Shown piece after piece: positions 331 through 23,520 of a stretch of 64,000 bases of DNA. Made by a program: the position numbers and the translations under genes. The stretch's first letter is position 1. The number at the start of each line of letters is the position of its first letter. Location of the stretch: the IMG/VR virus record IMGVR_UViG_3300037067_013617, positions 27,943-91,942 of that record; one strand, 5' to 3'. The DNA comes from a virus (taxonomy: Duplodnaviria > Caudoviricetes). Under the pieces are notes generated by a model that was not told the DNA's origin, searched no databases, and saw nothing but the letters and a program-made list of their open reading frames with translations.

Positions 331-2712
331 TTATTTTTTGATCTTAAATATTTGATTCTTATATCTATAGAAACCTTTTAATAGAGCGTCATTATTTTGC
401 AAGAACTTATCTATTGATGGCATAATTTTTTCAACAAAAATTTCTTCTGTCGGATGATTCGGACTTTTTACATCCATAATATCATTATTTTTTGTTTTAA
501 TCGCCCAATATTGTTCCATAGCACGTGCGAAACATTCACAAGTCCTATTTTGATATTTAGATGTCTGTTTTTTTACCATATTTTTTCTAAATGTACTAGC
601 TATTTCACCTGCAATATCTTCCGGATTATCTGATGCATAATGTCTGCCTGTTTTTTCACCGATATAATAATCCATAAAATGTCCCCACTCATGGGAGATA
701 ATAAAACCTGTTCCTTTGTCTCCATGTGCAGTTACACCAATTGCGTGCATAGAAGGAATAAACAATCCGATAGCCTTTCTTGCGTGCATCATCTTATCAC
801 CAGCATGGGATATCTTTAGCCCAAATGTTTTAGCCATTGATGATTTATTCCCGAAAACGGAAAAAAGATCATCCATTGCAGATTTAATTTCCTGAATTTC
901 TAACTCATTTATTTCTGCTCCGTTTTGACGTTTTACTTTTACGCCGTAATCCTGTAATAAATTATCTTTAGTTCCTTTGTCGCCGTATGCAGTTTCTTTT
1001 CCCTTCGTATATGTACTGTAATAATCTTCAAGCTGAATTTCCATATCTTCTGTTTTCTGTTTTAAATCCTGACGCAACCAACGATAAATTTCCCATAAAT
1101 TTTTAGTTTCATAACGGCTCCCGCCGGTAAAGCTATTGATAAGATCCATTTGATGGTAAGAAATTTTATTCTCAGGCAGCATCGTAATACGCTTTTTCCT
1201 TGTACGCAATGCCTGGTCTTCTTTTAATTTAGCCTTTGCTTTCTTTAGATAATAATCCTGCGTTGCGGCGAATACATCTCTATTAACTATCGCAAAATTA
1301 TTTTCACCTATTTCTTTTCCCCAATCTCTGATACTCGGAGCCATTCTTTTAGCATTAAGCGCTAACAAATATTTATCTTCACCGAGTTTATATGCAGGAA
1401 TAAAATAATTTGACGATCTGAAATACGCTTCGTCAACTTCAGGAATATATGCCGGACGGGGATCGGTTAAAATAGTCTTTTCCTTTGCTAGATATATATC
1501 TTTCGGCCTTACCGCTGTATAATCTTTGGCTATATATTTTACAGGCTGTTTATCTTTGCCGCTGAATGGAATTTCAACCTCTGTATCAGTAGGATTAAAT
1601 TTTGATACCGGCATTATTACATCCTCCTGTTTTATTTCAGGAATATCCAATATCTCACGTTCAACTTCATTCCGTGTTTCCGGAGTCGCTTTATTTATAG
1701 CTTCTGCGATTTTAATGTCTTTTTTCTTCTGCTCAGGAGTTTCTTCTGTTGACATTTCGGCTGTCTCTTCCTCCTCCTCCGCCGGTTGTGCAGGAGCAGA
1801 TTCTATAACCGGTTCGGCAGGAGTTTCTATCTTTTCTATGATTTTTTCTTTTTCAAATCTTTTTAATTGTTCATTTTGACCATTTAAAACCTGAGTCCAT
1901 TTATTAATATAATCAGTATAAACAGATTTTGTATCGAATGGAACTTCCCCTCTTTTTTCTCTATATCCTTTTATGGTTTTTTCCGTGTCTTTAATGTTTC
2001 TTTTTAAATTTTCTATTAAAAGAGATTGTTCACTGCTATCCATTTTATAAAAATTTTGTTTTATTTCATAAGATGATGGATTATCTTGTCCAGTTAATTC
2101 TTTTGCCCTTTCTTTTGAAATATCCGGTAAAATAGATGATTCTTCCAATATCTCAATAGCAGGTGTTTCCTTTTTCCCATAAATATTAAATATCTCCCGC
2201 ATAACCTGCAATTTGAGCCCGGTCATACTCTCTTTCTTTTCTTTCTTTTCGGCAGGCTTTTCTTCTTTCTTTTCTTTTTTCTCAGGCGTTGTTTTTTGTT
2301 CTTTCTTTCCGGAAAAGAATTTATCCCACTTTTCTTTATTCATGAAATAAGCAGATACATGAGACTTCCAACTGTCCCAAGTTAAATTATATTTCTTCCC
2401 GATCTCATGCGATTCGTAATCTTTCATTACCTGTTTCATCGCCTGATTCTTATCCTTGAAATTAAAGAATCCGGCTATTTTTGACAACCAGCCTTCCTGT
2501 TGATCTGCTTTAAATTGATTATATTCTGCTTGAGTATAGAAATAACTGAATCCTTTACCGTTGGCTTTCGGGACTCGTTTGACATATTTATGTCCGGGAC
2601 GAATATCGCCGGAGGCTTTCTGTATATTTTGTGATTTAATATTATTTTTTTTACGATAGAATCCGAATGGAATATCTAAATAGTTATTTATAATTTTATT
2701 AATATCTTTCAT
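331..2712 (-). CDS. Large polyvalent virion/head-associated protein with C-terminal zincin-like (LPD1-type) domain
   Basis: N-terminal KASGDIRPGHKYVKRVPKANGKGFSYFY motif, charged linkers, C-terminal HEWGH plus ECFARAMEQY. Confidence 0.65.
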   Translation of the reverse strand: MKDINKIINNYLDIPFGFYRKKNNIKSQNIQKASGDIRPGHKYVKRVPKANGKGFSYFYTQAEYNQFKADQQEGWLSKIAGFFNFKDKNQAMKQVMKDYESHEIGKKYNLTWDSWKSHVSAYFMNKEKWDKFFSGKKEQKTTPEKKEKKEEKPAEKKEKKESMTGLKLQVMREIFNIYGKKETPAIEILEESSILPDISKERAKELTGQDNPSSYEIKQNFYKMDSSEQSLLIENLKRNIKDTEKTIKGYREKRGEVPFDTKSVYTDYINKWTQVLNGQNEQLKRFEKEKIIEKIETPAEPVIESAPAQPAEEEEETAEMSTEETPEQKKKDIKIAEAINKATPETRNEVEREILDIPEIKQEDVIMPVSKFNPTDTEVEIPFSGKDKQPVKYIAKDYTAVRPKDIYLAKEKTILTDPRPAYIPEVDEAYFRSSNYFIPAYKLGEDKYLLALNAKRMAPSIRDWGKEIGENNFAIVNRDVFAATQDYYLKKAKAKLKEDQALRTRKKRITMLPENKISYHQMDLINSFTGGSRYETKNLWEIYRWLRQDLKQKTEDMEIQLEDYYSTYTKGKETAYGDKGTKDNLLQDYGVKVKRQNGAEINELEIQEIKSAMDDLFSVFGNKSSMAKTFGLKISHAGDKMMHARKAIGLFIPSMHAIGVTAHGDKGTGFIISHEWGHFMDYYIGEKTGRHYASDNPEDIAGEIASTFRKNMVKKQTSKYQNRTCECFARAMEQYWAIKTKNNDIMDVKSPNHPTEEIFVEKIMPSIDKFLQNNDALLKGFYRYKNQIFKIKK

Positions 2713-3603
2713 TTAATCAATCTCCTCTAAATATATTATCGTTTTGTCGAACCATTCCTTTTCTATTTTTTCTTTTTTTATTATTTTATATTTTCCTTTA
2801 GGAATTACAATTTCTTTTTCATGCTTATATAATGAAAATGGACTTATGTCTACACCACGAGTATTATTTGCAATTATAAATTTTAAATTGAATCGTTCTT
2901 TTGAACCATGTTTTAAATATCCTCCCGGAGCAGAAAATGAAGACATAGAATCAATTTCAAATATATCATTTTCTTTAACTGAATCGTATAATTGATCTTT
3001 GAAATCTTCAAATACTCTAAAAATTTCACCATTATATTTAGGAGCATTTTGAATATATTTTTTTAATGTATTATATATTTCAAAATGATTTTTTTTTAAA
3101 CCTATATTTTTTTCTTTATCAATAATTCCTTTATCTATCTTTTTAACAATACTGCTATTCGCTATACCATCATTATCTTCAGTCCATGCCATTATATTAA
3201 AAAAATTTTCTTCATTTATATCTATTTTATCTTTTTGATTATTAATTAAAACTTTTTTTCCTGTACCCAATCCTATATTTTCCTCTGCTTTCCCTCCCTT
3301 TTTCCCTTGTCCTTCCCTATACCAATATTTCCAACCGCCTTTCCCGTCCGGTTCTCTGCGGATATACTTTGTCGGACGAGCCTTAGTCATATCAATTTCA
3401 TAATCTTCATAACCAGTCTCTTCTATTCGTTTTATTTTAAGTACGGGTTTGTGATACCAATCATATGTAACCTGTTTATTAACCTGTTCAGTAATTTTTT
3501 GTTTTTCATCTTCAGATAATGTTTTAGTAGAATTATTATTCGGAAGATCAGCGTACATGCTATGAATAATATTATTTTTACCATCTAAATATATTTTACT
3601 CAT
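2713..3603 (-). CDS. Putative ADP-ribosyltransferase (R-S-E, VIP2/Alt-like) with head-cargo motif
   Basis: IFRV (R), MSSFS (S-x-S), HEKEIVIP (ExE); KARPTKYIRREPDGKGGWKYWY motif upstream. Confidence 0.65.
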   Translation of the reverse strand: MSKIYLDGKNNIIHSMYADLPNNNSTKTLSEDEKQKITEQVNKQVTYDWYHKPVLKIKRIEETGYEDYEIDMTKARPTKYIRREPDGKGGWKYWYREGQGKKGGKAEENIGLGTGKKVLINNQKDKIDINEENFFNIMAWTEDNDGIANSSIVKKIDKGIIDKEKNIGLKKNHFEIYNTLKKYIQNAPKYNGEIFRVFEDFKDQLYDSVKENDIFEIDSMSSFSAPGGYLKHGSKERFNLKFIIANNTRGVDISPFSLYKHEKEIVIPKGKYKIIKKEKIEKEWFDKTIIYLEEID

Positions 3604-5594
3604 TTTGTTACCTTTTTATATTCAATATTAAAATCATTTTTTAAAACAGAAGATTCTTGTACCAAATCCCAAAATATTTCCCGATGTATTTTCTCCGCTT
3701 TATATGGAGTTATTTCTTTTGATTTAACTTTAGGAGTTAAAATACTAAAAACTTTTTCATTAATGCTATTTAAGACATTTATAAAAGTAGTATTTTTATT
3801 CTTCAAATCATAAGATTCTCCAAATTCATCTGAATTTCTTGATTTTTTTTTGTGACTAATTTTAAAAGAATAAATATCATTTGGAGTCTTTACTCTTATT
3901 TCTTTTATTCCCAAACTCAGCGCTAAAAATACATCCTCAACACTAAATGATACATCTTCAGGATGAGTATGCGTCAATATTTCAATATTTCTTAATTGCT
4001 TTACCTCGTTCTCATCAAATTCTATTTTATCATATATTCCTTCTTTATGGAATAAAATATTTCCATCTCTATCGATAACATTTACTTTTTCCTTTCCTGA
4101 AGGATTTATATCTTTTTCTATATTGTTTGTTGTTAATAAAGATGCTTTAGAAGTTTCTGAATGACCGATTCTTTCCTCAAACCCGATTAAGTTATAATTA
4201 AATAATAAATTATGACTATCAAATTTCATTTTTAACTTTATATTTTCTTCATCATTTTCACCTTTAAATTTTTTTTTTATGTCTTCTTTATAAAAATATC
4301 TATACCCGCCTTTCCCATCGGGAGACCTGCGGACATATTTATGACCGGGGCGGATGTCACCGATGGCTTTAGCAAGAGATTCTTTTTTTAAATCAGGATA
4401 ATCTTTTAATACTTCATCAGGAACACTTTTACCTATTTTAAGAGCATTTTTAACTGCGTCTTTATGTCCTTTATATTTTTTCCAATCATTGGTAATAAAA
4501 ATCACAGGTTCGTCATCGCCGCCTGTTCCGATCTGTCTTCCTTTTCCATAATGAGTAATATTCCCACCTGCCATGCTTCCAGATATTGGCGTTACATATA
4601 CACTTACGCCTCGTTCTTGTTTATTGTCCATGTGATTATAGCTTCTTCCGCTTTTCGGAGGTTGCCCTGATCTATAAAAATCTCGTTCCTCACCTAAAAC
4701 ATAAACATCGCCATCATTGTCTTTTGCATATTTTTTTGCTTCTTCGGCGTTATCAAACATTTTTATTCTTTCTTGTTCGTTCCATCCTCGGAATAACCAT
4801 TCTGCTTTATTCTTCTTAGCAAAATCTATCTGTTCATCATAATTAGTGACGACTTGCATGTCAGCATAAGTTATTGGAGTACTTGCTTCATCTTTTGTTA
4901 ATTGCCAAATTTCTTTTTTCGGAGTTAATTTTTTTAAATGACTTTTATATTCCTGTTTAGTTCTATTTTTTTCTTTTTCTATATCTTCCGATTTATCTAT
5001 TTCATATGCTTTGCTTTCCATTGCAAACGGTTGTAAATCTGATGCAAAATATCCTCCTCCGAATATATAATGTTTCTCTGGATCATACGTGATCGTTTCT
5101 TTACCATTATTATATTTGGCCTCAAACGATTTATTATTTAGAATTGCTTCTGATAATTTTTTACCAATATCAACATTGGCTTTATCTTCTTCATCTTTTA
5201 TTTTATAATTTTTAATTTTTCCTAAAAATTCATTTTGTAACCTTTGAAGTTCAGGCTTAATTTCATTAAATTTATTTTCTTTAATTTTCAACAAAGAAGA
5301 CGGTTCTTTTAATTCATTGTATAATCTTTGTTTTTCTTTATGAAAATCCACTTTCGCTCCTTTTGCTTCACCCTGCCCCTCCCTATAAAAATACCTCCAT
5401 CCACCTTTGCCGTCAGCCTCTCTGCGAATATATTTTGTTATCCGAGCTTTCTCCATATCCTCATAATAATCAGGATCTTCGTCAAGGCGCTTTATAGCCA
5501 TTCTTGTCGCAATCAATACATTGCCTGCTTTCTGCAGCTCAATTTCTATGGCATCGCGAAGCTGACGCGGTGAGTAATTTTTAAAGAGTTTCAT
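3600..5594 (-). CDS. Modular polyvalent protein with two cargo motifs and a C-terminal JAB/MPN-like domain
   Basis: Two KA..KY.RR..DGKGG motifs; C-terminal E...THTHPEDVSFSVED; N-terminal IEIE...LDEDPDYY segment. Confidence 0.55.
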   Translation of the reverse strand: MKLFKNYSPRQLRDAIEIELQKAGNVLIATRMAIKRLDEDPDYYEDMEKARITKYIRREADGKGGWRYFYREGQGEAKGAKVDFHKEKQRLYNELKEPSSLLKIKENKFNEIKPELQRLQNEFLGKIKNYKIKDEEDKANVDIGKKLSEAILNNKSFEAKYNNGKETITYDPEKHYIFGGGYFASDLQPFAMESKAYEIDKSEDIEKEKNRTKQEYKSHLKKLTPKKEIWQLTKDEASTPITYADMQVVTNYDEQIDFAKKNKAEWLFRGWNEQERIKMFDNAEEAKKYAKDNDGDVYVLGEERDFYRSGQPPKSGRSYNHMDNKQERGVSVYVTPISGSMAGGNITHYGKGRQIGTGGDDEPVIFITNDWKKYKGHKDAVKNALKIGKSVPDEVLKDYPDLKKESLAKAIGDIRPGHKYVRRSPDGKGGYRYFYKEDIKKKFKGENDEENIKLKMKFDSHNLLFNYNLIGFEERIGHSETSKASLLTTNNIEKDINPSGKEKVNVIDRDGNILFHKEGIYDKIEFDENEVKQLRNIEILTHTHPEDVSFSVEDVFLALSLGIKEIRVKTPNDIYSFKISHKKKSRNSDEFGESYDLKNKNTTFINVLNSINEKVFSILTPKVKSKEITPYKAEKIHREIFWDLVQESSVLKNDFNIEYKKVTK

Positions 5595-5598
5595 AATT

Positions 5599-5961
5599 TT
5601 ACCTTAACTTAAAATCAAAATTTATTGCTTTTGCATTAAAAAATTGCTGACTAAAAATAATAACTTTTTCAGGATCAAATTCCTTACAGGAAAATAAATT
5701 TATATAGCAATCATTATGTCTATTATCTTCTCTGCAATGTATCGTAATGCTGGATGTCATTAAAAACTGGAATGCAGAAATTCCTTCTATGTCGCCTTCT
5801 CCGAATCTCTCCACGATGCATTCACCATAAGGCTTCATTTTTATTAATTGCAATATATCATAAATATATTTTTTTATTGGTTCTTTTTGTGTTATGCATA
5901 ATCTATCGCAGTCGAATAAATCAAGTATCAGTTCATAGCCCCAGTGCTTTTTCTGCTCCAT
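5599..5961 (-). CDS. speD: S-adenosylmethionine decarboxylase-like proenzyme
   Basis: WGYELILDLFDC, FGEGDIEGISAFQFLMTSSITIH, INLFSCKEFD; start moved to MEQKK with GGGGA RBS. Confidence 0.7.
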   Translation of the reverse strand: MEQKKHWGYELILDLFDCDRLCITQKEPIKKYIYDILQLIKMKPYGECIVERFGEGDIEGISAFQFLMTSSITIHCREDNRHNDCYINLFSCKEFDPEKVIIFSQQFFNAKAINFDFKLR

Positions 5962-5965
5962 GCTT

Positions 5966-6955
5966 TTATTCCCCCAAAGATTTAATTTCTGTTTTATATC
6001 CAAACGGCTCATTTAAATTGCCGGACTGAATCCATTCCCTGATTTTTTTCGTATTGGTCTGTCTTATCGAAATTAATCCGTCCCATCCTTTTTGGTAATT
6101 TGATAGATAAGCAGCCTCGGCCTCTTCTATATTGTCAAAGCCTAACATGATTTTATGCTCATCGAACAAATTATTTTTTCCCTGGTTGACAACGAAAGCT
6201 CTCGATGCCCCAATTTTATCTCCTATAAAAACATCAATAGGATCATTGTCAGCGGCCTCCGTTCCTATAATATAACCGTAATGATTTTTCATCTTCGTCA
6301 ACCATTTCCGGCCAGATTCGTCAAACCCCCAGCGGACACTTCCTTTCGGATTTTCAATGCGAATACGAAGTCCCTTATATTCAATTAATCCTTTACGGTA
6401 GTTACCGCTTTCTTTCTGCGCGGGAGTCGGATCGGTATCAGTATCAATATGCTTTAATTGAAATTTTACCTTCTGTATTTCTTTCGTCGGATTCAATGTC
6501 TCTTCGATAATTGCCAGTATCTTATCTATCTTTTGCGGGAACAGAATTGCCGTCCCTCCGGCATCCTTCCACGGCTTCAGGTTCCTATCCATGTCATCGA
6601 TCAATATACTTTTCTCGTCAATTACATACGGCGATTTATCAACTGCAAAAATAACGTCAAATTCTTTTCCGACATTTTCCTCCAACCACGAAATTTTATC
6701 CCATTTACAATACTGCATATTTTCCATCGGAGTCGTCAAGAATACGATTTTATATTTATTCCGCAGCTGATTCAATAATTCCATGCCTTCAGGGACAACT
6801 TTCAATTTCCGGAAAAAATGAGGGTCTTGCAAACAGACCTGATTTATGGTAAAGGAATCGTCTGCGTATGCGTTGCGGCCAAAGAATTCTTTATATCCGC
6901 GGGCGAAGTCAGCGATTACGCCATCGAGATCGAAAAATATTATTTGTTGTGTCAT
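5966..6955 (-). CDS. Fusion of HAD 5'(3')-deoxyribonucleotidase (NT5C-like) and inorganic pyrophosphatase-like (InPase) domain
   Basis: FFDLDGVIADF, LTTP, K..W, LIDD; then PTPAQKESGNYRKG, IENPKGSVR, HYGYI.GT..AD.DPIDVF, FDEHKIMLGF. Confidence 0.75.
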   Translation of the reverse strand: MTQQIIFFDLDGVIADFARGYKEFFGRNAYADDSFTINQVCLQDPHFFRKLKVVPEGMELLNQLRNKYKIVFLTTPMENMQYCKWDKISWLEENVGKEFDVIFAVDKSPYVIDEKSILIDDMDRNLKPWKDAGGTAILFPQKIDKILAIIEETLNPTKEIQKVKFQLKHIDTDTDPTPAQKESGNYRKGLIEYKGLRIRIENPKGSVRWGFDESGRKWLTKMKNHYGYIIGTEAADNDPIDVFIGDKIGASRAFVVNQGKNNLFDEHKIMLGFDNIEEAEAAYLSNYQKGWDGLISIRQTNTKKIREWIQSGNLNEPFGYKTEIKSLGE

Positions 6956-7104
6956 ATTATCTTGCCTTATTCTTATATATTCGTATAGTTTCTTCATCTA
7001 CCTGATTGTACCAAAATTTACGAGCAAATCGGGCAACTTCGGTTTCCCATACAGGAGCATATTGTTTGAATATATCGATCATTTATCAATTTACATAATC
7101 ATAA

Positions 7105-9021
7105 TTAATTTTTTATTTTAGGAAATTTACAAATTGCTAATATCTTAGCATTTGTCATCTCAATTTCTCCAGGATCGTTTCCTTCGTTTGTATTATTATT
7201 AGTTCCTAATAATAATATTTCATCTCCTAAACTTTTATATTTTTCTATTTCATCCATAATTTCATCTATAGAATTTGAATCTGCTAACCATAATGCAGAA
7301 GTTCCATGTTCTGTATCTGTTATTTTTCCATCTGGTTGATAATAGGACGATTCAGCAATATCTCCTATTTTAACTTTAACATGTTTTCCAGTTTTTGGAT
7401 TTTTACTATTAATTCTTAATCCATAAATGTTATATTCATTCGATTTTAAAATATTTTTTATTTGTTTTTTAAATTGGTCTTTATAAGGTTTTTCTTTCTT
7501 CTTTTCTTCCCCTTTTAATTTTTTATATAATTCTTTTTCTAATTCATAAGCTCTATTATATAAATTATCCATTTCATTTGTATCTTTTTCAGGCCATAAT
7601 TCAGTCCTATAACCTTTTTCATCTTTTCCATATTTTTCTCGTAACCTTTCTTCAATTTCTAGTGCTTTATCTCTATATTCTTTTTCTCTTTTTTTTAATT
7701 TTTCCATATTGGCTTCATTTTCATTTTTTTCTCCTCCATGTTTTTCTTTTAATTCCTTAACTTTATCTTCCACGGTTTCACCTTCCTTTAATGAAATATG
7801 CATCCCATGAATAGTATTTCCTAAAGATAAAGTATCTCTTCCATAATCATAAATCCAACCGCCCTTGCCGTCCGGCTTCTTATTCTTATATTTATGATTC
7901 GCTTTCGCCTTTTTCATCTCGTCCCAATCGATCCTGCCGTTGACGACCGGAACCATCGCCTTGCCTAACGTAATCCATTTATGACCGTCCTCATATCTAT
8001 TCATTGCCTCAGCCTGCACTTCCTCCGGCACCTCTATATCTTTAATCTCGTCAAATAGCCCTTTCTTGAGGATAAAGCTATTGCTAGTAATATCGAATTT
8101 CGGTTGCAAATATTCGAATAATTGTTCCTTGCGGAGATCCCACATATCCTTGATAATGGCTTCTTTTCTTTTGCGGTCGAATATTGCCTCCAACAAATTG
8201 AGTCCTTTTTCGTCTTCAAATGCTAGGATATTATAAAAAGATTTACTTATAAGTAAACTCTTGAGATACCATTTATAGACAGTGCAGAATACTTCTTCCT
8301 CGGATGATTTCTCCCACTCAAATTCATAGATAGCACCCGGCCTGAGCAATTTGAAATGTTCATAAAATTTCTTTCTCTCATCGAATTTAACACAATCGCG
8401 CCAGAAGATATGCCCGATCTCATGCATGGTATTATCGATATATTCCCTGTCATCATATAGGCTGATATTGTTTCCAAGTATCATTGATACTATTTTTTTC
8501 TTTTTCTGGTCGTCTGTCGACTCTAAAAAATTAACAATTACGCTATGCGGAGGGAGAAAAAGTTCTCCGACCTTCAGATTGCCGAAAACCATATTAAACC
8601 GGTTAATTTGGTCGCCAAGAGAATCTTTCGGCCAGTCCTGCTTTCCCATAATAATGAAGGGATCGCGATTATCATTCGGTACTGGCGCAGTGGAATTCTC
8701 ATCATCAGAAAGACGTAAAGGGGGTCTATCTTCAAAATCTTTCTCATCTTCAATTATAACTGCTTTGACAAGGCGCTCAATACTGATTTTTTCTTTTTTA
8801 TCGGATATGAATTTATCGTCTGTGGGGTCGAATCCGATTATTAAATTATTTTGAATAAAAAACGGGCTGGAATCTACAATCGCTTTTTTTAATTCTCCAT
8901 GAGAATATTTTCCATAAGAAATATTATATTTTTTTTCTAAACTTTTTTTTATTTCTTCTATGGATGTTTCAGGAGAATATTTATTTTTTTCTGATAGTTT
9001 TAAAATTTTTTCTTTATCCAT
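7105..9021 (-). CDS. Modular head-associated protein with zincin-like HEIGH domain and cargo motif
   Basis: MHEIGH...EEVF; KAKANHKYKNKKPDGKGGWIYDY followed by Lys-rich linker and an unknown C-terminal domain. Confidence 0.5.
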   Translation of the reverse strand: MDKEKILKLSEKNKYSPETSIEEIKKSLEKKYNISYGKYSHGELKKAIVDSSPFFIQNNLIIGFDPTDDKFISDKKEKISIERLVKAVIIEDEKDFEDRPPLRLSDDENSTAPVPNDNRDPFIIMGKQDWPKDSLGDQINRFNMVFGNLKVGELFLPPHSVIVNFLESTDDQKKKKIVSMILGNNISLYDDREYIDNTMHEIGHIFWRDCVKFDERKKFYEHFKLLRPGAIYEFEWEKSSEEEVFCTVYKWYLKSLLISKSFYNILAFEDEKGLNLLEAIFDRKRKEAIIKDMWDLRKEQLFEYLQPKFDITSNSFILKKGLFDEIKDIEVPEEVQAEAMNRYEDGHKWITLGKAMVPVVNGRIDWDEMKKAKANHKYKNKKPDGKGGWIYDYGRDTLSLGNTIHGMHISLKEGETVEDKVKELKEKHGGEKNENEANMEKLKKREKEYRDKALEIEERLREKYGKDEKGYRTELWPEKDTNEMDNLYNRAYELEKELYKKLKGEEKKKEKPYKDQFKKQIKNILKSNEYNIYGLRINSKNPKTGKHVKVKIGDIAESSYYQPDGKITDTEHGTSALWLADSNSIDEIMDEIEKYKSLGDEILLLGTNNNTNEGNDPGEIEMTNAKILAICKFPKIKN

Positions 9022-9111: not shown

Positions 9112-9888
9112 TCACATTGTATATTCTTTTACTATCTCGCGGCAAAAAGAAGAAACGACTTCATGTATCTGTTTATTGACTTCAGCCAATACTTTAGGGA
9201 AAACCGGCTCGGCAGCCACGCCCGGATGTATCCATCCCGTAGACTTTTCGCTTACTACCCGGAATATTCCATATTGTTCATGATGCTGCCGGGTAACGAA
9301 ACGGGATAAACCGGTAACATCCACATCTTTTCCTTTAATGGTTAAAGTACCAGATTTTAATCTTTTGCCGGATTTGACAATATTATGCATTTCTTGTGTC
9401 ATTTCCCTGCCACCGAATTTAGATTGCATTGAGCCCTGTTCGGTCTTGCGCGGCGCGGCCACGGGGAAGGGAATGACCATGTATTTTACTCCGTCTGAGG
9501 ATACTTTTGCCTTTTCGCTTTTGAGCAAGGCATCCTTGATACTAAACGATTTCATCCCCGTCTCGACCATTCGAACATACATCATATTCGGTTTATTTGA
9601 TGTTTTATCGATTAAATCTTCGTCAACATATATCTCCCCGACATTTCCTGTAACTTTAGCTTTTATTGCAGCAGCATATTTGTCACCCCATCCTGTACTT
9701 ACGTTTCTGGCCTCTGATTTCCAACTCTCTTGCATACCATACGTTAAAACAGCCACAACAGAAGGAAAAGCCTCATCAATAGCTTCAACTATTTTTATAA
9801 ATTGTTCTTCTGATAATTGAGAACCGACCGATTCTAATGTTTCTGCAATCGAATTCATAATCATATTTTCATCTATATTAAAAATCAT
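9112..9888 (-). CDS. Putative neck/head-completion virion protein
   Basis: KYMVIPF and FRVVSEKSTGWIHPG motifs typical of large-myovirus morphogenesis proteins; context next to MuF. Confidence 0.5.
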   Translation of the reverse strand: MIFNIDENMIMNSIAETLESVGSQLSEEQFIKIVEAIDEAFPSVVAVLTYGMQESWKSEARNVSTGWGDKYAAAIKAKVTGNVGEIYVDEDLIDKTSNKPNMMYVRMVETGMKSFSIKDALLKSEKAKVSSDGVKYMVIPFPVAAPRKTEQGSMQSKFGGREMTQEMHNIVKSGKRLKSGTLTIKGKDVDVTGLSRFVTRQHHEQYGIFRVVSEKSTGWIHPGVAAEPVFPKVLAEVNKQIHEVVSSFCREIVKEYTM

Positions 9889-9959
9889 ATAATATCCCTT
9901 TAAAATAATTGATTTTTATTTATTATATAAATACAATGGATAAAAAATCAAGGAATATT

Positions 9960-10823
9960 ATGAAAAAATATAATACTGGTATATATCAAATTGTAAATCA
10001 AATTAATAATAAAAGATATATCGGAAGTGCAGTAGATTTATATAATCGAAAACATATTCATTTTTCTACTTTAAAAAATAATAACCATAAGAATAAACAT
10101 TTACAACAGGCATATAATAAATATGGAAAAAATAATTTTACATTTAAAATTTTATTATTATGTGATAAAAAAAATTTATTATTTTATGAACAGCGAATTA
10201 TTGATAGTTACTATTTTAATAGTTTATATAATTTACTTCCAAAAGCAGGAAATTGGTTAGGGCATAAACACACAGAAGAAACAAAACAAAAAATATCTAT
10301 AATAAAAACAGGGAAAAAATTATCACAAGAAACTCGGAATAAAATGTCTAAGAGTAGAAAAGGTAGAAAAATATCAGAATATCAAAAACAAGCACTTATA
10401 CAAGGCAAACGAAATGCTACCATATCATTAGAAACAAGAAAAAAATTATCTACTATAGCTAAAAATAGAATATTATCATTCGAAACAAAACAAAAAATTA
10501 GTAATAGTTTAAAAGGACGCATATTTACAAAAGAAACTAGAAGAAAAAAATCTTTAGCACAAATGGGAAACAAAAATCATAGATTTGGAAAACATCCTTC
10601 GAAAAAAACCATAAAGAAGATGCAAGAGTCTCAAAAGAGAAGTAAACATCATTGTGCAAAAGCTATATATCAAATTGATAAAAATACAAATTCTGTAATA
10701 AAAACATGGTTTTGTATTAATGATGCGGCTGATTTTATATCTATATCTAGTACATGTATTTCTATAGCTTGTAAAGATAATTCAAAAACCGCTGGCGGAT
10801 ATAAATGGCAATATGTTAAATAA
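9960..10823 (+). CDS. Free-standing GIY-YIG homing endonuclease with NUMOD3/NUMOD1 repeats
   Basis: NTGIYQI..KRYIGSA; repeated HTEETKQKIS-type units; CK...KTAGGYKWQY; antisense to flanking genes. Confidence 0.9.
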   Translation: MKKYNTGIYQIVNQINNKRYIGSAVDLYNRKHIHFSTLKNNNHKNKHLQQAYNKYGKNNFTFKILLLCDKKNLLFYEQRIIDSYYFNSLYNLLPKAGNWLGHKHTEETKQKISIIKTGKKLSQETRNKMSKSRKGRKISEYQKQALIQGKRNATISLETRKKLSTIAKNRILSFETKQKISNSLKGRIFTKETRRKKSLAQMGNKNHRFGKHPSKKTIKKMQESQKRSKHHCAKAIYQIDKNTNSVIKTWFCINDAADFISISSTCISIACKDNSKTAGGYKWQYVK

Positions 10824-10827
10824 AATC

Positions 10828-12225
10828 TTATTCTATAGCCTCCTCGAATATTCGACGGAACGAAGGACTTTCTCTATTTACAGGAATTGGATTAGATGTA
10901 TTCCGTTTCCATTCGTCTAATTTAAAATTATATTGAGCTGCATCAACTGCTTGATAAATATTATTATTAAATTGCACAATGTCATTACCAATTTTTTTTG
11001 GATTATTGGAGTCTATTTCTTCTTTTGTTTTTTCGGCATAATCTATTTGTTGTGGAACGAATTTATATTTTTTTTGTTTATGCTCTACATCGTCTGTTTT
11101 GGAATTATAATATTCTTCATCTAAATTTATAGGTTGCATTGTAGCTTTATTATGGGGATGGGCAGGACACACTGCATGAAACCATTCTTGTTTTTTTCTT
11201 CCAATATTATTTTTTCCGATCCACAATGCATAATTTGTATTTGGATCTTTAATCCCAATATCGGATAATAATTCAGTATTTTCTCCAGCGATAATTGACG
11301 ATGGAATCAATCGAGCAATAGTTCCTCGAACACTTACACAGAAATCACACGTCCCACCTATCCTAACGAAATATTGTGCCCTACTTGGATCTTTCAACGA
11401 TGCCATTGCATCTGCTTCATAAGGTGCGAGTATCCCCATTTCATATATAGATGCCATTTCAGTCGAGGCAATTCTATTCCAGTTTTTCTTTAATGTTTCA
11501 GCACTGTATCTATTCGTTAAATTTTCATCTCTTTCTATATTCCAAAATAATTGACTTCCCACTTCTACCGGGCTCTTATTTTCTTTTATCCCAGTCTCAA
11601 TCTGCTGCCGGATAGCTTCCTGTAACTCGTTGTTCGATTGTTTAACGTACATGGCGATGGATGAATACGTCTTGTTCAGTGCATTCTTTTCCGATTTATT
11701 AAAGTCATATTTTTTATAGGCCTGAGCGAGCGCGGACGGCATTTTTCCGTTGTATTGATCTGCAATAACCTGATGCAAGGATTGATTCTGATATGGTTTT
11801 TTCTTCTTTCTGAAGGCAGTCGTCTGTTTTCCCAGGATATGTGCCTTGATGGTTACGTCCTCGGCCACCGTGTCCGCGTATTCACTCCAATAATTATCAA
11901 TAGCATTATTGAATTTACGCCATTGCCTCGGCGTTAGCGGTTTCCCCGATCCATATATCTTTTCTTTATATCTAAATTTCGGAACTTTATAATGAAAAAT
12001 ATTTTTAAATCGGCTGAGAATAGAATCCCATAATTCGGCTTTCTGCATTGTCGCAGGATGCTTTGTCGCTAATTTATATGCTTCTGATTCCTTTAATCCT
12101 AAATTAACAGCAACGCCGGTATAAATTTCATCGATAAGAGCAGACATATATGCGTTCCAATATTGCAATAATTCTGCTACATATTTAACGTCGTATTGTT
12201 CCTGCTCTTCCTGTTTCTTGTCCAT
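10828..12225 (-). CDS. Minor head morphogenesis protein (MuF/SPP1 gp7-like)
   Basis: RIASTE, TCDFC, CPAHPHN pattern; head-gene context. Confidence 0.7.
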   Translation of the reverse strand: MDKKQEEQEQYDVKYVAELLQYWNAYMSALIDEIYTGVAVNLGLKESEAYKLATKHPATMQKAELWDSILSRFKNIFHYKVPKFRYKEKIYGSGKPLTPRQWRKFNNAIDNYWSEYADTVAEDVTIKAHILGKQTTAFRKKKKPYQNQSLHQVIADQYNGKMPSALAQAYKKYDFNKSEKNALNKTYSSIAMYVKQSNNELQEAIRQQIETGIKENKSPVEVGSQLFWNIERDENLTNRYSAETLKKNWNRIASTEMASIYEMGILAPYEADAMASLKDPSRAQYFVRIGGTCDFCVSVRGTIARLIPSSIIAGENTELLSDIGIKDPNTNYALWIGKNNIGRKKQEWFHAVCPAHPHNKATMQPINLDEEYYNSKTDDVEHKQKKYKFVPQQIDYAEKTKEEIDSNNPKKIGNDIVQFNNNIYQAVDAAQYNFKLDEWKRNTSNPIPVNRESPSFRRIFEEAIE

Positions 12226-14001: not shown

Positions 14002-15762
14002 CTAAGCTTTAACGTAAACCGAACCATCAATATTTTTAGTCGTCAGAACTTCTCTTATATCTTCATTCTGAATCAATGCCGCAGGCAGATCCAGTGCAAC
14101 ACCAATATCCTCATTCGCGAGCGCCCATTCCTGCAATACATCATTAACCTGATCCAGTGTATCAACGGCTATAATTACATCATAGTATTCTGTGCCATGT
14201 AATACCTGGCAATATCTAAGATTCTTGACGTTAGCCGTAGACGCTGCCGTTCCAGTATAAGTCTCGGCTTCCGCACCATCGACAACTAATGTTTCATCGT
14301 CGAAACTATATCCGGCCTTATGAATTTTAACGATATATGTACCATCGTCCAGATTAAAGGTTACTTGTCCTGAACTATCGCTTAATTCCCTCGCGTATAA
14401 TACTGTACCACCTGCATCAAATAATTCAACACTGGCTTCTACGATATTAGCGCCTATTGCATCATGGAGTGTTAAAACAACTACATTGCTGCCGGTTGGA
14501 CCGCTTCCACCGCCGCCAACCCAAGTCGTATCGCCATGGTCACGAATAGCTTCATTAGAGTCATCCGCCGGATCAAAATTCCCAACAGGAGTAATCAATG
14601 TATGATTCTTGCTCATTAAACCTTTGAGTTTATCAACTATGTCATTATATTTTGTTAAAGCATCTGTAAGTGTTGCGAGGGTCGTAATATTAGCCTTAAA
14701 ATCATCAGGAGTTGTAACGGCGTTACTGCCGACGTAATCAACTCTGGCATCAACTTTACCCGTTGTTGTAAATATCAATTGATCCGTTTTAGTTTTAATG
14801 GCTCCCACTTCAGAATCAATATATCCGGCTATTGCGCCTAATGCCGATATAATACTGTCAATATCCGTATTTGCGGATATTGCAGCATCGGCAGCAGCTT
14901 GTGCCTGAGCGCTTGAAAGATTATTCAATGCCGCAATTAATGTTTGTAAAGCGGCATTGCCATAAGTGACTGAACTAACAATGGCTCCGGCATCAGCTGT
15001 TTGCTTAGTATTACCAGTATATGTATCAATAGTACCAACGACCCAATCCGCTAATTTCTTACCAATTGAACCAACGGCTGTTAAACCGGAAAGTAGCTGA
15101 TTCCATATCGCAAGAATACCGGCAGAGGATAAGCTGAATCCGGTCTTATCAGATACGGCGATACTCTGTCCCGCCGTCAAATCAACAGTCTGATTAACTT
15201 TCGTCCCATTCGTTGTGGGAATGCCTCCGTTCGCTCCGGCTACGGCATCGGGTAAACTATTGATGGTTCCCGTTGGCGTTGCCTTATTAAAAAATTTGGT
15301 AAAAGCTGCTGCAATTTGTCCTGCTGTTTCCGTTATCGCAGTACCAAGAATTTGGATTAAGTTTGCCTTAACAACGGTATCGGGGTCCCATCCGATTGTA
15401 GGCGGATCGGCTTTGACAGCGGCAGCAATATCTAAATCTGTCGCTATTGCAGTAGTTGTGAATTCTCCTATAAACCCTGTCGGATTAACCGAACTAACAG
15501 CCAATGTACAAAATACCGCATATTCAGAATTAGCAAGAAACCCATTAGCAGTTGTACCTGGAACCGCTACCTCAGCGCATCCATTGGGATAGCTTACATG
15601 AGTTAATATATACGGAGTTGCGGTATAGACAGGAGCTGCCGAAGCGGCCGCGCCTTTCAGCCTTACATACGCGGCATGGTCTGTGCCATCGGCGCCTGTA
15701 CCTGTGATATCATTGATACCAAAATTAAAAATAAATGTACTTTCAAGAGCTTTATATTGCAT
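14002..15762 (-). CDS. Virion fibre/appendage-like structural protein
   Basis: Ala/Gly/Thr-rich, Ig/Cna-like segment near the C-terminus, C-terminal domain shared with the 20816 ORF. Confidence 0.55.
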   Translation of the reverse strand: MQYKALESTFIFNFGINDITGTGADGTDHAAYVRLKGAAASAAPVYTATPYILTHVSYPNGCAEVAVPGTTANGFLANSEYAVFCTLAVSSVNPTGFIGEFTTTAIATDLDIAAAVKADPPTIGWDPDTVVKANLIQILGTAITETAGQIAAAFTKFFNKATPTGTINSLPDAVAGANGGIPTTNGTKVNQTVDLTAGQSIAVSDKTGFSLSSAGILAIWNQLLSGLTAVGSIGKKLADWVVGTIDTYTGNTKQTADAGAIVSSVTYGNAALQTLIAALNNLSSAQAQAAADAAISANTDIDSIISALGAIAGYIDSEVGAIKTKTDQLIFTTTGKVDARVDYVGSNAVTTPDDFKANITTLATLTDALTKYNDIVDKLKGLMSKNHTLITPVGNFDPADDSNEAIRDHGDTTWVGGGGSGPTGSNVVVLTLHDAIGANIVEASVELFDAGGTVLYARELSDSSGQVTFNLDDGTYIVKIHKAGYSFDDETLVVDGAEAETYTGTAASTANVKNLRYCQVLHGTEYYDVIIAVDTLDQVNDVLQEWALANEDIGVALDLPAALIQNEDIREVLTTKNIDGSVYVKA

Positions 15763-17269
15763 TGATCAGTCCTCCGTTTATTCCTACCATTGCTCCCCCG
15801 CCTGTTCCGCTTATTGTAATTGGATTTTCCAAAACTACGGTTACGCCGTAAGCTGTTACATAATTTCCATTTGGAATTTTATTAACGATAGAATCTCCAC
15901 CCGAAGCAGATGCAATTTCGGCCTCGGTATAAGTCGCAAGAGCCCCGCCGACAGCAACATCAAGATCAGCATTACTTCCAAGTCCTATTCCAATAAGAAT
16001 GCCATCGTCATCTGCATCTTGTACGTAATATCTTGATCGGATCCATTCTCCTGCGCCGCCTTCCGTAATTAAAGCCCATGCTTCTTTTGCACCTATACCG
16101 AATAATCCTGTTTTTCGTACCCAACCTGTTGCCGTATCATAAGCACATCCAGTCACAGAATATAATGGTTCGCCATTTGCACCTTGAAAACTGCTATATG
16201 CACCTCCGGAACTATAGGCACCGCCATTGTTATCTGACATTCCAGAGCGATCACCTTGTCCGCCGACTACGATTGTTTTTGCAGGGTAAGAAGGAGATGG
16301 GGCGGTAGGAGCAAGCTCATAAACCCCCACATCCCAACTTCCAGTTCTAGTTGTATTTAAAAAATCGTAATTAAATGGATAAGTTACGTCACCTGATAAG
16401 TCAACACCTATATCTTTTAATCCAGAACTTGATCCTATTGTAGCGTTACAAGCTCCCGCAGTTACATTGGTAAAATAAGCCCCAGAGCCAATAGCACATG
16501 CAACTACTGTTGAACTAAAAGAACCGTCTGAAGAAGCATTATTGGAATGGTTTTGAGTGCCATTATAATATCCGGCAGTAAATGATCCAGAAGTACCCGC
16601 GTAGCAATTTTTTAACGTATTCGTTCCATTTGTAGAACCATAAAATCCATACACTGAAGCATTTATTGATACACAATTATATATCGTTATTGCAGAGGAA
16701 CTTGCACACGTAAAACCTCTTTTTCCGCCATATGCTACGCAGTTTATAAATATATTTCCAGTACCGTAGTTATAAAAACAATATCCATTGCTTCCTACTC
16801 CTATATCATATCCAACACAATTTATTATTTTGCAATATGATGAGTTATTTATACTTAAGCAATTATCTCCGTTAGCGGAAGAATTTTTAATTCCTATACC
16901 TTTAATTACAGTATAAGATACTGCCGATATATCTAGAACACTAGTATAAGCTCTACTAACTATCAGTCTATATCCAGCCGTTCTATTAATATTGCATTTT
17001 GCATCGCCAAGCGTTTGTATTGTAATGAATCTAGTTGCATCTGTAGTAAAACCTGTTATATTACAATAAGCTGTATCGTTTAGGGCATCCCATCCGGTAC
17101 CGCCTATAATTTCGCATACTTCTAATTCATCAGCAGTTACTAAGTTTCTAGCCCTAGCTGCAACCCATGCAGCCATTGATGTATATGCATAAGCTCCGTA
17201 TTTAGTAGTCTCAGCTCCACTTAAAGAATATCCGGTTGGATAAATACAACTATATACTGTAGTAGCCAT
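15752..17269 (-). CDS. Right-handed beta-helix virion protein (spike/adhesin-like)
   Basis: Repeated (I/F)xNC..Y..GF coils, WDVGVYE. Confidence 0.6.
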   Translation of the reverse strand: MATTVYSCIYPTGYSLSGAETTKYGAYAYTSMAAWVAARARNLVTADELEVCEIIGGTGWDALNDTAYCNITGFTTDATRFITIQTLGDAKCNINRTAGYRLIVSRAYTSVLDISAVSYTVIKGIGIKNSSANGDNCLSINNSSYCKIINCVGYDIGVGSNGYCFYNYGTGNIFINCVAYGGKRGFTCASSSAITIYNCVSINASVYGFYGSTNGTNTLKNCYAGTSGSFTAGYYNGTQNHSNNASSDGSFSSTVVACAIGSGAYFTNVTAGACNATIGSSSGLKDIGVDLSGDVTYPFNYDFLNTTRTGSWDVGVYELAPTAPSPSYPAKTIVVGGQGDRSGMSDNNGGAYSSGGAYSSFQGANGEPLYSVTGCAYDTATGWVRKTGLFGIGAKEAWALITEGGAGEWIRSRYYVQDADDDGILIGIGLGSNADLDVAVGGALATYTEAEIASASGGDSIVNKIPNGNYVTAYGVTVVLENPITISGTGGGAMVGINGGLINAI

Positions 17270-17647
17270 TTATTCCTCGGAAAATAAAACTTTATTATTC
17301 TTTATAGATAAGTTTTCTTTGAATTTCTCATCTTCATATCTTGCTAAATGATTTGGCATGTCTGTTATTTCAATCCAGTCTTTTCCTGATTTATATACAT
17401 GTTTTATCTCTGGTTCGTCAAAAGTCCATTCTATAGTTCTTGATTTTCGTACAACTCTTATTTCTGGTATAGACGTATCATGGTTCGATTTAGTTAATAA
17501 AAAAGAATCTGATATCTTTACAATATTAAATTGTATTTTTTCAGAAGAGCTAAATTGATGATTATCGGGAAAAATTCCTATAACATCATTCACTTCAGCC
17601 TTTCCTTCTTTTTTTGTAATATTATTTATAAGTAATATCTGAGACAT
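17270..17647 (-). CDS. Hypothetical protein
   Basis: ORF with GGGGGG RBS, in operon. Confidence 0.6.
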   Translation of the reverse strand: MSQILLINNITKKEGKAEVNDVIGIFPDNHQFSSSEKIQFNIVKISDSFLLTKSNHDTSIPEIRVVRKSRTIEWTFDEPEIKHVYKSGKDWIEITDMPNHLARYEDEKFKENLSIKNNKVLFSEE

Positions 17648-17667
17648 ATTTTTTAAACCCCCCCTTT

Positions 17668-21939: not shown

Positions 21940-23520
21940 TTATATTAACATAATTGCTTTATTCATAGCTTCATCGGCTATGTCATCTATTTCTTCATCA
22001 GAAAAATTATCAGGGTTGCCTTCACCGCCCTGTGATTGCATTGATTGTGCCTGTTTAAATTGTAAAAATACGGGATCAAGAATAATATCTCCCATGCCAT
22101 CCTTAAGCGGCGGTAAATCTTCTTCTGCCCGAATTTCATTAATCGTATGCGTTGTTTTAACTTTCTTTTCTCGAAGTTCTACCTCGAAACTTTTATCTTC
22201 GGTAGATAATCCGTTAAATTTAAAAATAAAATCTTTAGCAAAATCATATCCGCTAACTTTTGCAAATTTATTTACTATGTATGCAAATCCACCAAGCAGT
22301 TCACGCACACCGCGATTCTTAGAGAATAATTGTTTTGCGTCCTGATTTTCGGAAAGTACGGCCTGCGCCTGGTTTAATCGAAGTCCTAACTCCGCAGCAT
22401 CAACTCCCATAACGGAACATGTAAGCGCCCCTACAAATTCCATATATTTCTGATATTCCATGTCCCGATTATTCGGAAACATATTAAGAACTTTGGCGTC
22501 ACCATTAAGCAGCGGAATATTCCATTGCCCGTCCATAGCCTCAAAATTAGCTGCCCATTCGTCCTGTGCGTCTTCTAGTTCCTCAACAGTATATCCGGAT
22601 TCCTTGCCCATCGCAATAGCTATTTTAGGGATAGACCCGCGGGAAAGGCCGTTACTGTTAAATGTAACAGCATTCATAAAAGCTACTATCGCTATATTCG
22701 CTTTCTCCGTGACAGATAGACCTTGTTTATAATATCGGACTTCGTTTAATTCATTGCCGAGATCATAAACAACATCATTTTCACGAAAAGCTGCTGTAAC
22801 ACCTCCACCGGCGCTACCATATAATAATTCCTGGATATATGCAATTTCTTCCATCGGCGGGACCTGTTCGAGTTTTGCCTTTCTTAATGCATCACTGACT
22901 TTACTTAATCCGTTTGGTATGCCGAAGCCTATTTGAGATAACGATCCGTAAAATCCTCCAGGAAGAACGGGAAGAATCGTTGCACCGTCAAGCACCCACA
23001 GTGCCACCGTTTTGCCTGAGCGATCTCTTTCAATTTCCCATACGACTTTATCAATTAAAATTCTATCCCGAACATATTTAACTAATAAATCTTTAAAATC
23101 ATCGTGTTTAGGTTCAGCACCCTGATAATCCGGCCGGTATGTTTCCTGAACTAAATTTTCTAAGAATTCTTTTTGTTTTTTTTGATTAGAATTGAGTGTT
23201 GCTTTCGGATCTTTTAAAACGAATTCCCATCCGGGAACGTCTTTATCATGGGATATATGAGAAAATTCAAGAGCTTGCTGAATGCGAAGAGTTATAATCG
23301 CCCCGACAATACCATTACGCCTTTCGATAAGGCGCAATAGTCTATCAGGTATTTTATCTTTTGGATAAACAACATGATTAAAAGAAGTGTTATTGAGCCA
23401 GTCGTACTGAACGCCTTTCGCAACAGTTTTAAAAACCCTTTTATCGAGTCTTTTGACTGCCGATTTAGCTTCTTTTATTGCTTTATCATAATCAATTAGT
23501 TGCTGTTCCTTCGTTGCCAT
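21940..23520 (-). CDS. Portal protein
   Basis: LWVLDGATI, GLS..E, NRDMEY, FKFNGL, TINEIRAEEDLPPL..GDIIL; near terminase. Confidence 0.9.
   Translation of the reverse strand: MATKEQQLIDYDKAIKEAKSAVKRLDKRVFKTVAKGVQYDWLNNTSFNHVVYPKDKIPDRLLRLIERRNGIVGAIITLRIQQALEFSHISHDKDVPGWEFVLKDPKATLNSNQKKQKEFLENLVQETYRPDYQGAEPKHDDFKDLLVKYVRDRILIDKVVWEIERDRSGKTVALWVLDGATILPVLPGGFYGSLSQIGFGIPNGLSKVSDALRKAKLEQVPPMEEIAYIQELLYGSAGGGVTAAFRENDVVYDLGNELNEVRYYKQGLSVTEKANIAIVAFMNAVTFNSNGLSRGSIPKIAIAMGKESGYTVEELEDAQDEWAANFEAMDGQWNIPLLNGDAKVLNMFPNNRDMEYQKYMEFVGALTCSVMGVDAAELGLRLNQAQAVLSENQDAKQLFSKNRGVRELLGGFAYIVNKFAKVSGYDFAKDFIFKFNGLSTEDKSFEVELREKKVKTTHTINEIRAEEDLPPLKDGMGDIILDPVFLQFKQAQSMQSQGGEGNPDNFSDEEIDDIADEAMNKAIMLI

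Follow-up and report, generated by a model that had tools for sequence, protein, structure and literature searches.

The internal proteins IPI–III and Alt of phage T4 carry a capsid targeting sequence of ~10 residues, which lies upstream of the cut and is removed by the prohead protease gp21. Packaging of Alt in T4 is also described in the sections considered here of the study on polyvalent proteins (Iyer, Burroughs, Anand, de Souza and Aravind 2017, PMC5512222), and the same sections describe the Dar system of phage P1 as head-packaged anti-defence proteins, with DdrB being processed before packaging. Polyvalent proteins form a large class of anti-defence enzymes that are predicted to be injected and are for the most part untested, and their entry into the capsid and the separation of the modules are an open question. 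Here, we analyzed a 64-kb stretch of viral DNA (IMG/VR record IMGVR_UViG_3300037067_013617, positions 27,943–91,942), termed the window, which forms the right-hand part of the genome of an uncultured phage (91,942 bp, 34% GC content). Four (A–D) of six co-directional minus-strand genes at positions 331–9021 of the window contain a repeated tag of ~35 residues connected to unrelated enzyme domains, for which the initial annotation had suggested a capsid-cargo system, and a sixth copy of this tag resides in an open reading frame (ORF E) to the left of the window.

We propose, with a probability of roughly 0.57, that the tag is the portable head of virion-delivered polyvalent cargo modules, combining a protease site with a hairpin that would address or anchor the modules in the capsid. 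The tag itself is real and lies far beyond chance. A loose six-frame pattern search of the window returned exactly the five copies in four clustered genes that had been annotated initially, all on the minus strand and at the same coordinates, and a profile built from the tags of other phages only, without any window sequence, detected six copies in the whole genome (33–54 bits) and nothing else above 0; the bit scores given below derive from this profile. Based on an alignment of 41 copies and the inspection of 313 copies in 201 proteins, the tag comprises a short helix ending in hydrophobic-x-K-A, a loop of 5 or 11 residues and a basic β-hairpin, with the core consensus H-K-Y-[ILV]-[RS]-[RK]-x-P-D-G-K-G-G-W-x-Y-x-Y. 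The loop defines two subtypes, a 5-residue form present in genes B, C (tag 1), D and E, and an 11-residue form, often reading K-G-x-E-R-x-G, present in gene A and in tag 2 of gene C. In an AlphaFold2 model based on the tag alignment, the K-A part forms a helix and the core folds into a two-stranded hairpin, with a predicted local distance difference test score (pLDDT) of ~86 for the hairpin and a mean of 69. The core carries a net charge of ~+3, with four conserved aromatic residues on the two-stranded sheet. In the model of gene D the tag stands apart from the neighbouring domain as a low-confidence appendage, and the hairpin was rejected as a part of the fold of that domain.

The short-loop copies of the window, all on the minus strand like the two long-loop ones, are located at 3319..3390 in gene B (residues 72–95; MTK↓A, with the arrow denoting the predicted cut; 47.5 bits), at 5385..5456 in gene C (tag 1; residues 47–70; MEK↓A; 54.4 bits), directly after a DUF5661-like helical leader, and at 7843..7917 in gene D (residues 369–393; MKK↓A; 33.2 bits), between a zincin-like domain and the variable C-terminal part. 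The long-loop copies are found at 2536..2628 in gene A (residues 29–59; 38.9 bits), where IQK↓A stands 11 residues before HKY, and at 4290..4376 in gene C (tag 2; residues 407–435; LAK↓A; 49.9 bits), internally between the middle and the C-terminal module. At the DNA level, the six copies show synonymous differences and have at most 16 identical bases in common, indicating that the tags are kept by protein-level selection and do not stem from recent duplication; on the same grounds, recent DNA duplicates or recombination substrates within the genome were rejected as an explanation. The tag yielded no model in Pfam (E up to 10) or NCBIfam and no sequence match in the PDB, and PHROGs gave no match in genes B, C or D, its sole match being the C-terminal domain of gene A. 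The 30 residues following the tag are polar (hydrophobic fraction of 0.19 vs 0.27; 301 tags), in line with a linker at this position, but K, E, Q and P are only mildly enriched, so that the Lys-rich character annotated initially holds to a limited extent.

The K-A end of the helix corresponds to the maturation site of the capsid. In Listeria phage A511, the cut after Lys and before Ser that the initial annotation had described is borne out by RefSeq, where the mat_peptide of the capsid protein starts after ...E-D-A-L-K↓S. The capsid protein of the window phage belongs to the SPO1/A511 family, and the family profile of a 294-aa ORF in the same head module (minus strand, left of the window; L056:6781-7665, corresponding to genome positions 16781-17665) matched the A511 head maturation protease with an hhalign probability of 98.8% (E = 7.6e-17, 155 aligned columns). 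The string sought in the major capsid protein of the window phage itself (minus strand, left of the window; L056:4462-5964, genome 14462-15964) is present as ...Q-A-L-A-K↓A at residue 25, matching the site of the tags, and hydrophobic-hydrophobic-K-A is kept 25–40 residues from the N-terminus in the capsid proteins of all tag-bearing lineages.

Compared to shuffled sequences, [LM]xKA was enriched in the 291-aa scaffold-like protein (7 observed vs 0.45 expected) and the protease homologue (3 vs 0.22) as well as in the proteins of genes D (4 vs 0.32), C (3 vs 0.42) and E (4 vs 1.06), and across lineages the enriched proteins were the scaffold-like, the protease-like and the tagged ones. For the scaffolds of ten tag-bearing lineages, the residue preceding the cut (P1) in hydrophobic-x-X-[AS] was Lys in 95 cases vs 14.9 expected, compared to Glu in 8 vs 12.3 and Arg in 2 vs 2.7, with Asp at or below expectation. 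Following hydrophobic-x-K, only Ser (64 vs 8.4), Ala (31 vs 6.4) and Gly (19 vs 5.5) were enriched at the next position (P1'). Together, hydrophobic-x-K-[S/A/G] was 6-fold enriched in these scaffolds and 2.6-fold in the cargo proteins, where Lys at P1 reached 100 vs 38.7 expected. A by-product of coiled-coil periodicity or composition was rejected, as the enrichment is confined to Lys at P1 and to Ser, Ala and Gly at P1'. A site was found within 22 residues upstream of K-Y in 92 of the 111 tags, compared to ~10 expected, with Ala (79) or Ser (13) at P1' of these 92 tag-associated sites. Cleavage of the tagged proteins at K↓A is a prediction with good indirect support, and in the simplest reading they are predicted prohead-protease substrates, which would place them inside the prohead when the protease acts.

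We also observed that the protease homologue holds a near copy of the capsid cut-site segment (VLMK↓ALMAPGS..D.YNTPGGS vs ALAK↓ALLAPGS..DLYNTPGGS), and likewise A511 (FMK↓SWTTGHGTTP in the protease vs ALK↓SFTTGYGITP in the capsid protein). This copy may provide a route to co-assembly or self-cutting of the protease.

The tagged genes are situated between portal/MuF-like genes and the protease–scaffold–capsid genes. An association with head clusters in other phages, on which the initial annotation had made its proposal depend, was looked for in 54 tag-bearing viral loci and found: within 10 kb of the tag, a portal homologue was present in 40 of the 54 contigs and a capsid-protein homologue in 34, raw counts that overstate independence because 30 of the loci belong to one phage family. 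The order of tagged protein(s), ~270-aa ORF, ~250-aa ORF and capsid protein was found again in eight or more distinct lineages, at GC contents of 0.30–0.72, the range spanned by the tag-bearing loci. This head-gene location, the recurrent layout and the polyvalent cargo domains described below are consistent with the targeting of tagged proteins to the prohead or the DNA that had been suggested, with packaging itself being predicted.

Among 1.84 billion representative proteins, a profile search yielded 469 clusters at E ≤ 0.001, of which 75 reached E ≤ 1e-10, and a word-seeded search of 5.8 billion proteins yielded 84 tagged proteins. The tag is usually N-terminal or located between modules and few copies are C-terminal; the first tag starts within residues 1–50 in 112 of the 201 inspected proteins, and 86 of these proteins contain 2–6 tags at a median spacing of ~205 residues. 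The partner domains behind the tag comprise RelA-SpoT, ddrB-ParB, ART-PolyVal, zeta toxin, InPase, SAM lyase and DarA_C, and furthermore DpdA, NUDIX, GNAT, CCA-adding enzyme, SNF2 helicase and N6-methylase, whereas most partners are without any Pfam family.

A degenerate DNA search for the canonical tag pattern detected only two metagenome-assembled genomes (MAGs) among 185,579 species genomes, indicating that the tag is essentially a phage feature and not general to polyvalent proteins. In one of these two, a 469-kb Acidimicrobiia MAG contig (CAWAEN010000015.1; L067, L068) harbours at least five tagged ORFs with eight tags in two nearby stretches and gave no match to the capsid-protein query; it may be a binning artefact or stem from a prophage whose head is of another type. 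Searching 50,697 cultured-phage records with one tag by tblastn gave no match, and neither did a megablast of the region against cultured phages. The blank tblastn result reflects a limit of sensitivity, since the profile search later found that two proteins of the cultured Leptospira phage LE1, LE1-0015 and LE1-0026, each carry a divergent N-terminal tag. LE1 thereby offers a bench system accessible to ordinary virion proteomics.

By content, the tagged genes belong to the polyvalent-protein class. Disparate activities are joined in one chain, with gene D combining a zincin with an unrelated C-terminal module and database matches containing up to six modules. Signature domains are represented by PF03496 in gene B, PF18823 at 5966-6997 and, weakly, LPD1 in gene A, as well as by PF18760, PF18763, PF18789, PF18796 and PF18823 in tag-bearing relatives, and the genes lie beside portal-type head genes. 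The considered sections of the polyvalent-protein study (PMC5512222) present the same repertoire (ART, InPase, LPD1, zincin-like peptidase, ddrB-ParB, DarA, RelA-SpoT, JAB/RadC-like), likewise as disparate enzymes in one polypeptide with phage copies beside portal/head genes, and delivery with the DNA along with proteolytic processing is predicted in both cases. In contrast, no repeated inter-module tag appears in these sections, a partial comparison given that the 40 LPD domains lie partly outside Pfam; the processor suggested here is the prohead serine protease with its K↓A/S code and not a zincin domain; and ~40% of the published set stems from conjugative elements, whereas the tag is nearly absent from cellular genomes. 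Judged from these sequence comparisons, the conserved helix–hairpin tag and its coupling to the K↓A/S code of an A511-type protease appear to be new.

From these observations we infer packaging, cutting and ejection of the tagged proteins as well as a binding partner of the hairpin. The tagged proteins would be made late in infection, each as one module or as several tag–linker–enzyme units in a row, and would be co-assembled with the scaffold inside the prohead. There, the prohead serine protease would cut the cargo at K↓A/S in addition to trimming the capsid protein and degrading the scaffold. Each freed enzyme would keep the hairpin at its new N-terminus. The hairpin would then act as an address or anchor that, through binding to the scaffold, the capsid interior, the portal or the DNA, brings the module into the head or keeps it there until ejection with the genome. 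The hairpin is near-invariant across loci of very different GC content, and so probably of different hosts, which favours a phage-internal partner over a host one.

The arrangement resembles the T4 internal proteins and Alt in that a short N-terminal signal is attached to unrelated head-bound proteins, in that one protease site is common to capsid protein, scaffold and cargo, and in the injection of the cargo with the DNA, which is predicted here. It differs in that T4 cargo consists of single proteins and not of module strings, in the site (L/I-x-E↓ in T4 vs hydrophobic-x-K↓ here, with no sequence similarity) and in the fate of the signal, which T4 discards, whereas here the conserved hairpin follows the predicted cut and would be retained by the cargo. 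A signal of the T4 type, upstream of the cut and removed with it, was not found, as the stretch before the cut in N-terminal tags comprises only 5–25 residues of poor conservation. With A511 and the SPO1-type phages (Herelleviridae), the window phage has in common a homologous protease and capsid protein in the same protease–scaffold–capsid order, a K↓S/A site ~23–25 residues into the capsid protein (after Lys23 in A511) and a protease containing a cut-site copy; A511 differs in having no tag and in a putative scaffold, gp85, without site enrichment (2 vs 1.25 expected).

The Dar system of phage P1 (DarA, DarB, DdrA, DdrB, Hdf, Ulx) is related through the DarA_C and ddrB-ParB domains found behind the tag in other phages. 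It differs by an ordered, protein-dependent loading with no known common peptide tag, and no Dar domain is present in the window. Likewise, the effectors fused to MuF or portal, as portrayed in the considered sections (PMC5512222), attach enzymatic ‘weapon’ domains to a carrier that enters the head. Here, the carrier is a ~35-residue tag and not a structural head protein: Phage_Mu_F (PF04233) was matched neither in genes A–D nor among the 84 database matches nor among the 11 families in 72 scanned proteins (E ≤ 1e-5), and none of the tagged proteins scanned contained a MuF or portal Pfam domain.

Besides the dominance of one phage family among the loci, several points weigh against a cargo tag. 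The packaging and cutting of the tagged proteins are predicted from sequence and gene context. Sites outnumber tags, with the 1483-aa protein of locus L045 containing 17 sites and one tag; cleavage would therefore be independent of the hairpin, which must have a role of its own. For the initial proposal that cleavage at K-A releases separate effectors, this means that the release is backed by the protease homology, the LAK↓A of the capsid protein and the Lys-specific enrichment, but that the tag is not ‘the’ cleavage signal. The predicted cut is situated 5 or 11 residues upstream of the hairpin, which would remain on the released module, unlike the T4 peptide. One tag per polyprotein would be enough for loading, and a tag on every module hints at a post-cleavage role or at inheritance from stand-alone genes. 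Within the same block, the AdoMet decarboxylase-like (AdoMetDC-like) gene and the NT5C-InPase gene are untagged. The tag was not found in A511 or in Bacteroides phage DAC19, though both have the same capsid-protein family (the A511-type protease being shown for A511 only), and it therefore represents an add-on that is not required by the head type. Finally, the capsid-protein query of the window phage found no match in two tag-bearing MAGs, in the 96%-complete tag-bearing phage G002, or in G003 and G005, a result that applies to this query only and does not equal absence.

Tags on every module are explained well by the main rival to an address or anchor, a DNA tether or ejection handle, in which the basic aromatic face of the hairpin would hold on to the packaged DNA or the portal/tail channel after cleavage, thereby keeping each module with the genome and letting it leave in its company. 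A post-cleavage role of this kind predicts the separate tag on each polyprotein module (as many as six in one protein), the mature fragment would keep the hairpin after the predicted cut, and the net charge and the four aromatics on the two-stranded sheet would suit such binding. However, the prohead is filled with protein before the DNA enters and a separate loading signal would still be needed, the tag has no similarity to a known DNA-binding fold or solved structure, and inheritance from stand-alone tagged genes would also account for the per-module tags. We regard a tether as an unlikely explanation. It is improbable that the tag is a processing cassette only, with the helix–hairpin as a structured spacer presenting the site to the prohead protease or to the zincin-like domains of A and D, so that modules separate cleanly, and with loading achieved by DUF5661/DUF6496 leaders or the D-type head. 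The fixed distance of 5 or 11 residues between site and hairpin in 92 of 111 tags would agree with a cassette, as would the recurrent DUF5661 leader before short-loop tags and the HExxH domains of A and D, the latter with a zincin fold, given that zincin-like peptidases have been proposed as processors of polyvalent proteins in the considered sections of Iyer 2017 (PMC5512222). Against it, most tags stand at the N-terminus of single-module proteins, where there is nothing to separate, and scaffolds and cargo contain many sites without a hairpin.

A function on the host side appears very improbable. Acting after injection, the hairpin would direct the enzymes to the nucleoid, ribosome, membrane or a shared host factor, and it would indeed remain on the mature enzyme and is attached to enzymes with very different targets, as expected for a common localisation device; yet it hardly changes across loci with GC contents of 0.30–0.72 and thus probably very different hosts, and it is near-absent from the cellular genomes and conjugative elements that carry the same effector domains. 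We consider it least probable, and barely credible, that the proteins are ordinary cytoplasmic enzymes and no cargo, in which case the motif would serve oligomerisation or act as a cap for folding or solubility, and the K-A strings would be incidental. Such enzymes would be compatible with packaging being a prediction, and NUDIX, NT5C and CCA-adding enzyme could act in the cytoplasm. This reading is countered by the location of the genes inside the head-morphogenesis block in many lineages, the Lys-specific site enrichment common to scaffold, protease and tagged proteins, the partners DarA_C, ddrB-ParB and ART-PolyVal, which are known from packaged proteins according to the considered sections (PMC5512222), and the detection of a polyvalent protein in phi24B virions (bioRxiv 10.64898/2026.04.10.717836).

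A further-reaching version of the address/anchor proposal, that the hairpin is a general, transferable signal for capsid loading or ejection which together with the K↓A/S code would be enough to load any protein into the heads of this large group of uncultured phages and deliver it to the host, is possible, though we regard it as doubtful. If true, the hairpin would be the phage counterpart of the encapsulin cargo-loading peptide, with effector domains being swapped behind it as plug-in cassettes. A tag coupled to the head-protease code would give a concrete, testable answer to how polyvalent proteins enter the capsid and are separated in one large phage group; in addition, the tag provides a sequence handle for finding new injected effectors and might serve as a tool to load phage particles with proteins of choice.

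As described initially, the tag DNA is GC-richer than the domains following it, with a GC content at third codon positions (GC3) of 0.38–0.52 in the tags vs 0.11–0.28 in the downstream modules. A mere effect of amino-acid composition was rejected, as GC3 is raised too. Within 2713-9021, GC3 amounts to 0.11–0.15 in the modules behind the tags of B and D and tag 2 of C, compared to 0.36–0.52 in the conserved head-type modules and the tags, and the AT-rich effector modules behind the tags of B, C and D look compositionally foreign or recently acquired. Comparing genes A–E with their relatives, 16 of 41 internal alignment ends fell within 20 residues of a tag (12% expected; the events are not independent). 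D-type proteins have the same head domain and tag, followed by an ART-PolyVal-like, GNAT, JAB-like or NT5C-InPase module depending on the phage. In three relatives (L054, L033, L003) NT5C-InPase is fused in one ORF behind a D-type head, the latter two having lost the tag at the junction or kept it in degenerate form only; the NT5C-InPase of the window has become a separate untagged gene.

The architecture supports an exchange of modules at or just behind the tags, and the tag would thereby explain the mosaic evolution of the genes carrying it. With regard to the suggested role as a homology point for effector swapping, the homology breaks at the tags and the GC3 drop behind them agree with swapping at this position, but with at most 16 shared bases the copies are too different at the DNA level and thus a poor substrate for homologous recombination in this genome.

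The four tagged genes, all on the minus strand, combine the tag with different domains. Gene A (331..2712; 793 aa) consists of the N-terminal tag, a polar Lys/Glu linker and a conserved ~460-aa C-terminal domain containing HEWGH (nt 679–693), which matched phrog_22901 (E = 2e-83, residues 335–779); its LPD1 match was weak and below the cut-off. Gene B (2713..3603; 296 aa) comprises a short N-terminal part, the tag, a Gly/Lys linker and an ADP-ribosyltransferase domain (PF03496, E = 3e-5, 23.9 bits vs a cut-off of 23.4). In gene C (3600..5594; 664 aa), the DUF5661-like leader and tag 1 are followed by a ~335-aa module without assigned family, tag 2 and a C-terminal module with HTHP...S..D (nt 3933–3971), which by reading of the JAMM-like HxH...S..D motif appears JAB-like; look-alikes of this last module elsewhere include JAB/RadC and fusions to MuF, minor capsid protein 2 or portal (Atlas, as a lead only). 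The DUF5661 matches of the gene C leader (14.3 bits) and of ORF E (17 bits) are weak and below the Pfam gathering cut-off of 27 bits. DUF5661 was matched in 7 of 72 other tagged proteins with a best E-value of 1.6e-18 and represents a recurrent leader before short-loop tags.

Gene D (7105..9021; 638 aa) contains a zincin-like metallopeptidase domain (HEIGH, nt 8410–8424), the tag, a Lys/Glu-rich linker and a C-terminal module. In its ~350-aa head domain, HExxH is nearly invariant in 11 relatives, and the model (pLDDT 79.7) gave PPEP/M34-type zincins as fold matches (E ~3e-3, probability ~1), suggesting a zincin fold like that of Pro-Pro endopeptidases. The two untagged genes between C and D, likewise on the minus strand, are the AdoMet decarboxylase-like gene (5599-6012) and the gene for NT5C and InPase (5966-6997; InPase as PF18823).

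In the order of transcription, the portal gene is followed by other genes, the MuF-like ORF, the 258-aa gene, D, NT5C-InPase, the AdoMetDC-like gene, C, B and A, and then by an eight-gene glycosyltransferase/radical-SAM block, E, the 294-aa ORF, a 291-aa acidic ORF and the major capsid protein; the acidic ORF, between the protease homologue and the capsid gene, is scaffold-like. Start and stop of C and B overlap as ATGA (3600–3603), and the stop TAA of B is directly followed by the start ATG of A (2710–2715), junctions by which C, B and A are judged to be translationally coupled. A single 1154-aa ORF of the close relative L002 combines parts of C and A. This fusion and the coupled starts indicate that gene boundaries in the block are fluid, like those of a split polyprotein.

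The portal protein (21940..23520, minus strand) has homologues ≤10 kb from the tag in the 40 loci mentioned above, and the MNKA annotated at its C-terminus is present as MNK↓A five residues from the end. The 465-aa ORF at 10828..12225 (minus strand), kept in close relatives, contains the one MQK↓A string that had been described for MuF, but its identity as MuF is the label of the initial annotation only and is unconfirmed, with no Pfam family at E ≤ 0.01, Phage_Mu_F included. At 14002-17269, in the stretch separating the portal gene from the MuF-like ORF, two large minus-strand ORFs (586 and 505 aa) gave no Pfam or PHROGs match, and no gene was identified as a terminase in the analysis of the window genes. 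ORF E (869 aa; L056:7960-10569, minus strand), with the sixth tag, is located ~7 kb beyond the left window edge. At residues ~735–790 it contains two LQK↓A sites followed by a Gly/Asp-turn motif, G-E-V-R-T-Y-K-D-G-T-K...A-D-G-T-W-K-S-V, which looks like a second, degenerate hairpin type near the C-terminus.

The conserved virion-module gene upstream of D (9112..9888, minus strand; 258 aa) has homologues in 35 of the 54 tag-bearing loci. This gene is separated from the MuF-like ORF by an opposite-strand insertion at 9909-10823 (plus strand; GC content of 0.17–0.28), which encodes a GIY-YIG homing endonuclease containing four NUMOD3 motifs (PF01541, PF07460).

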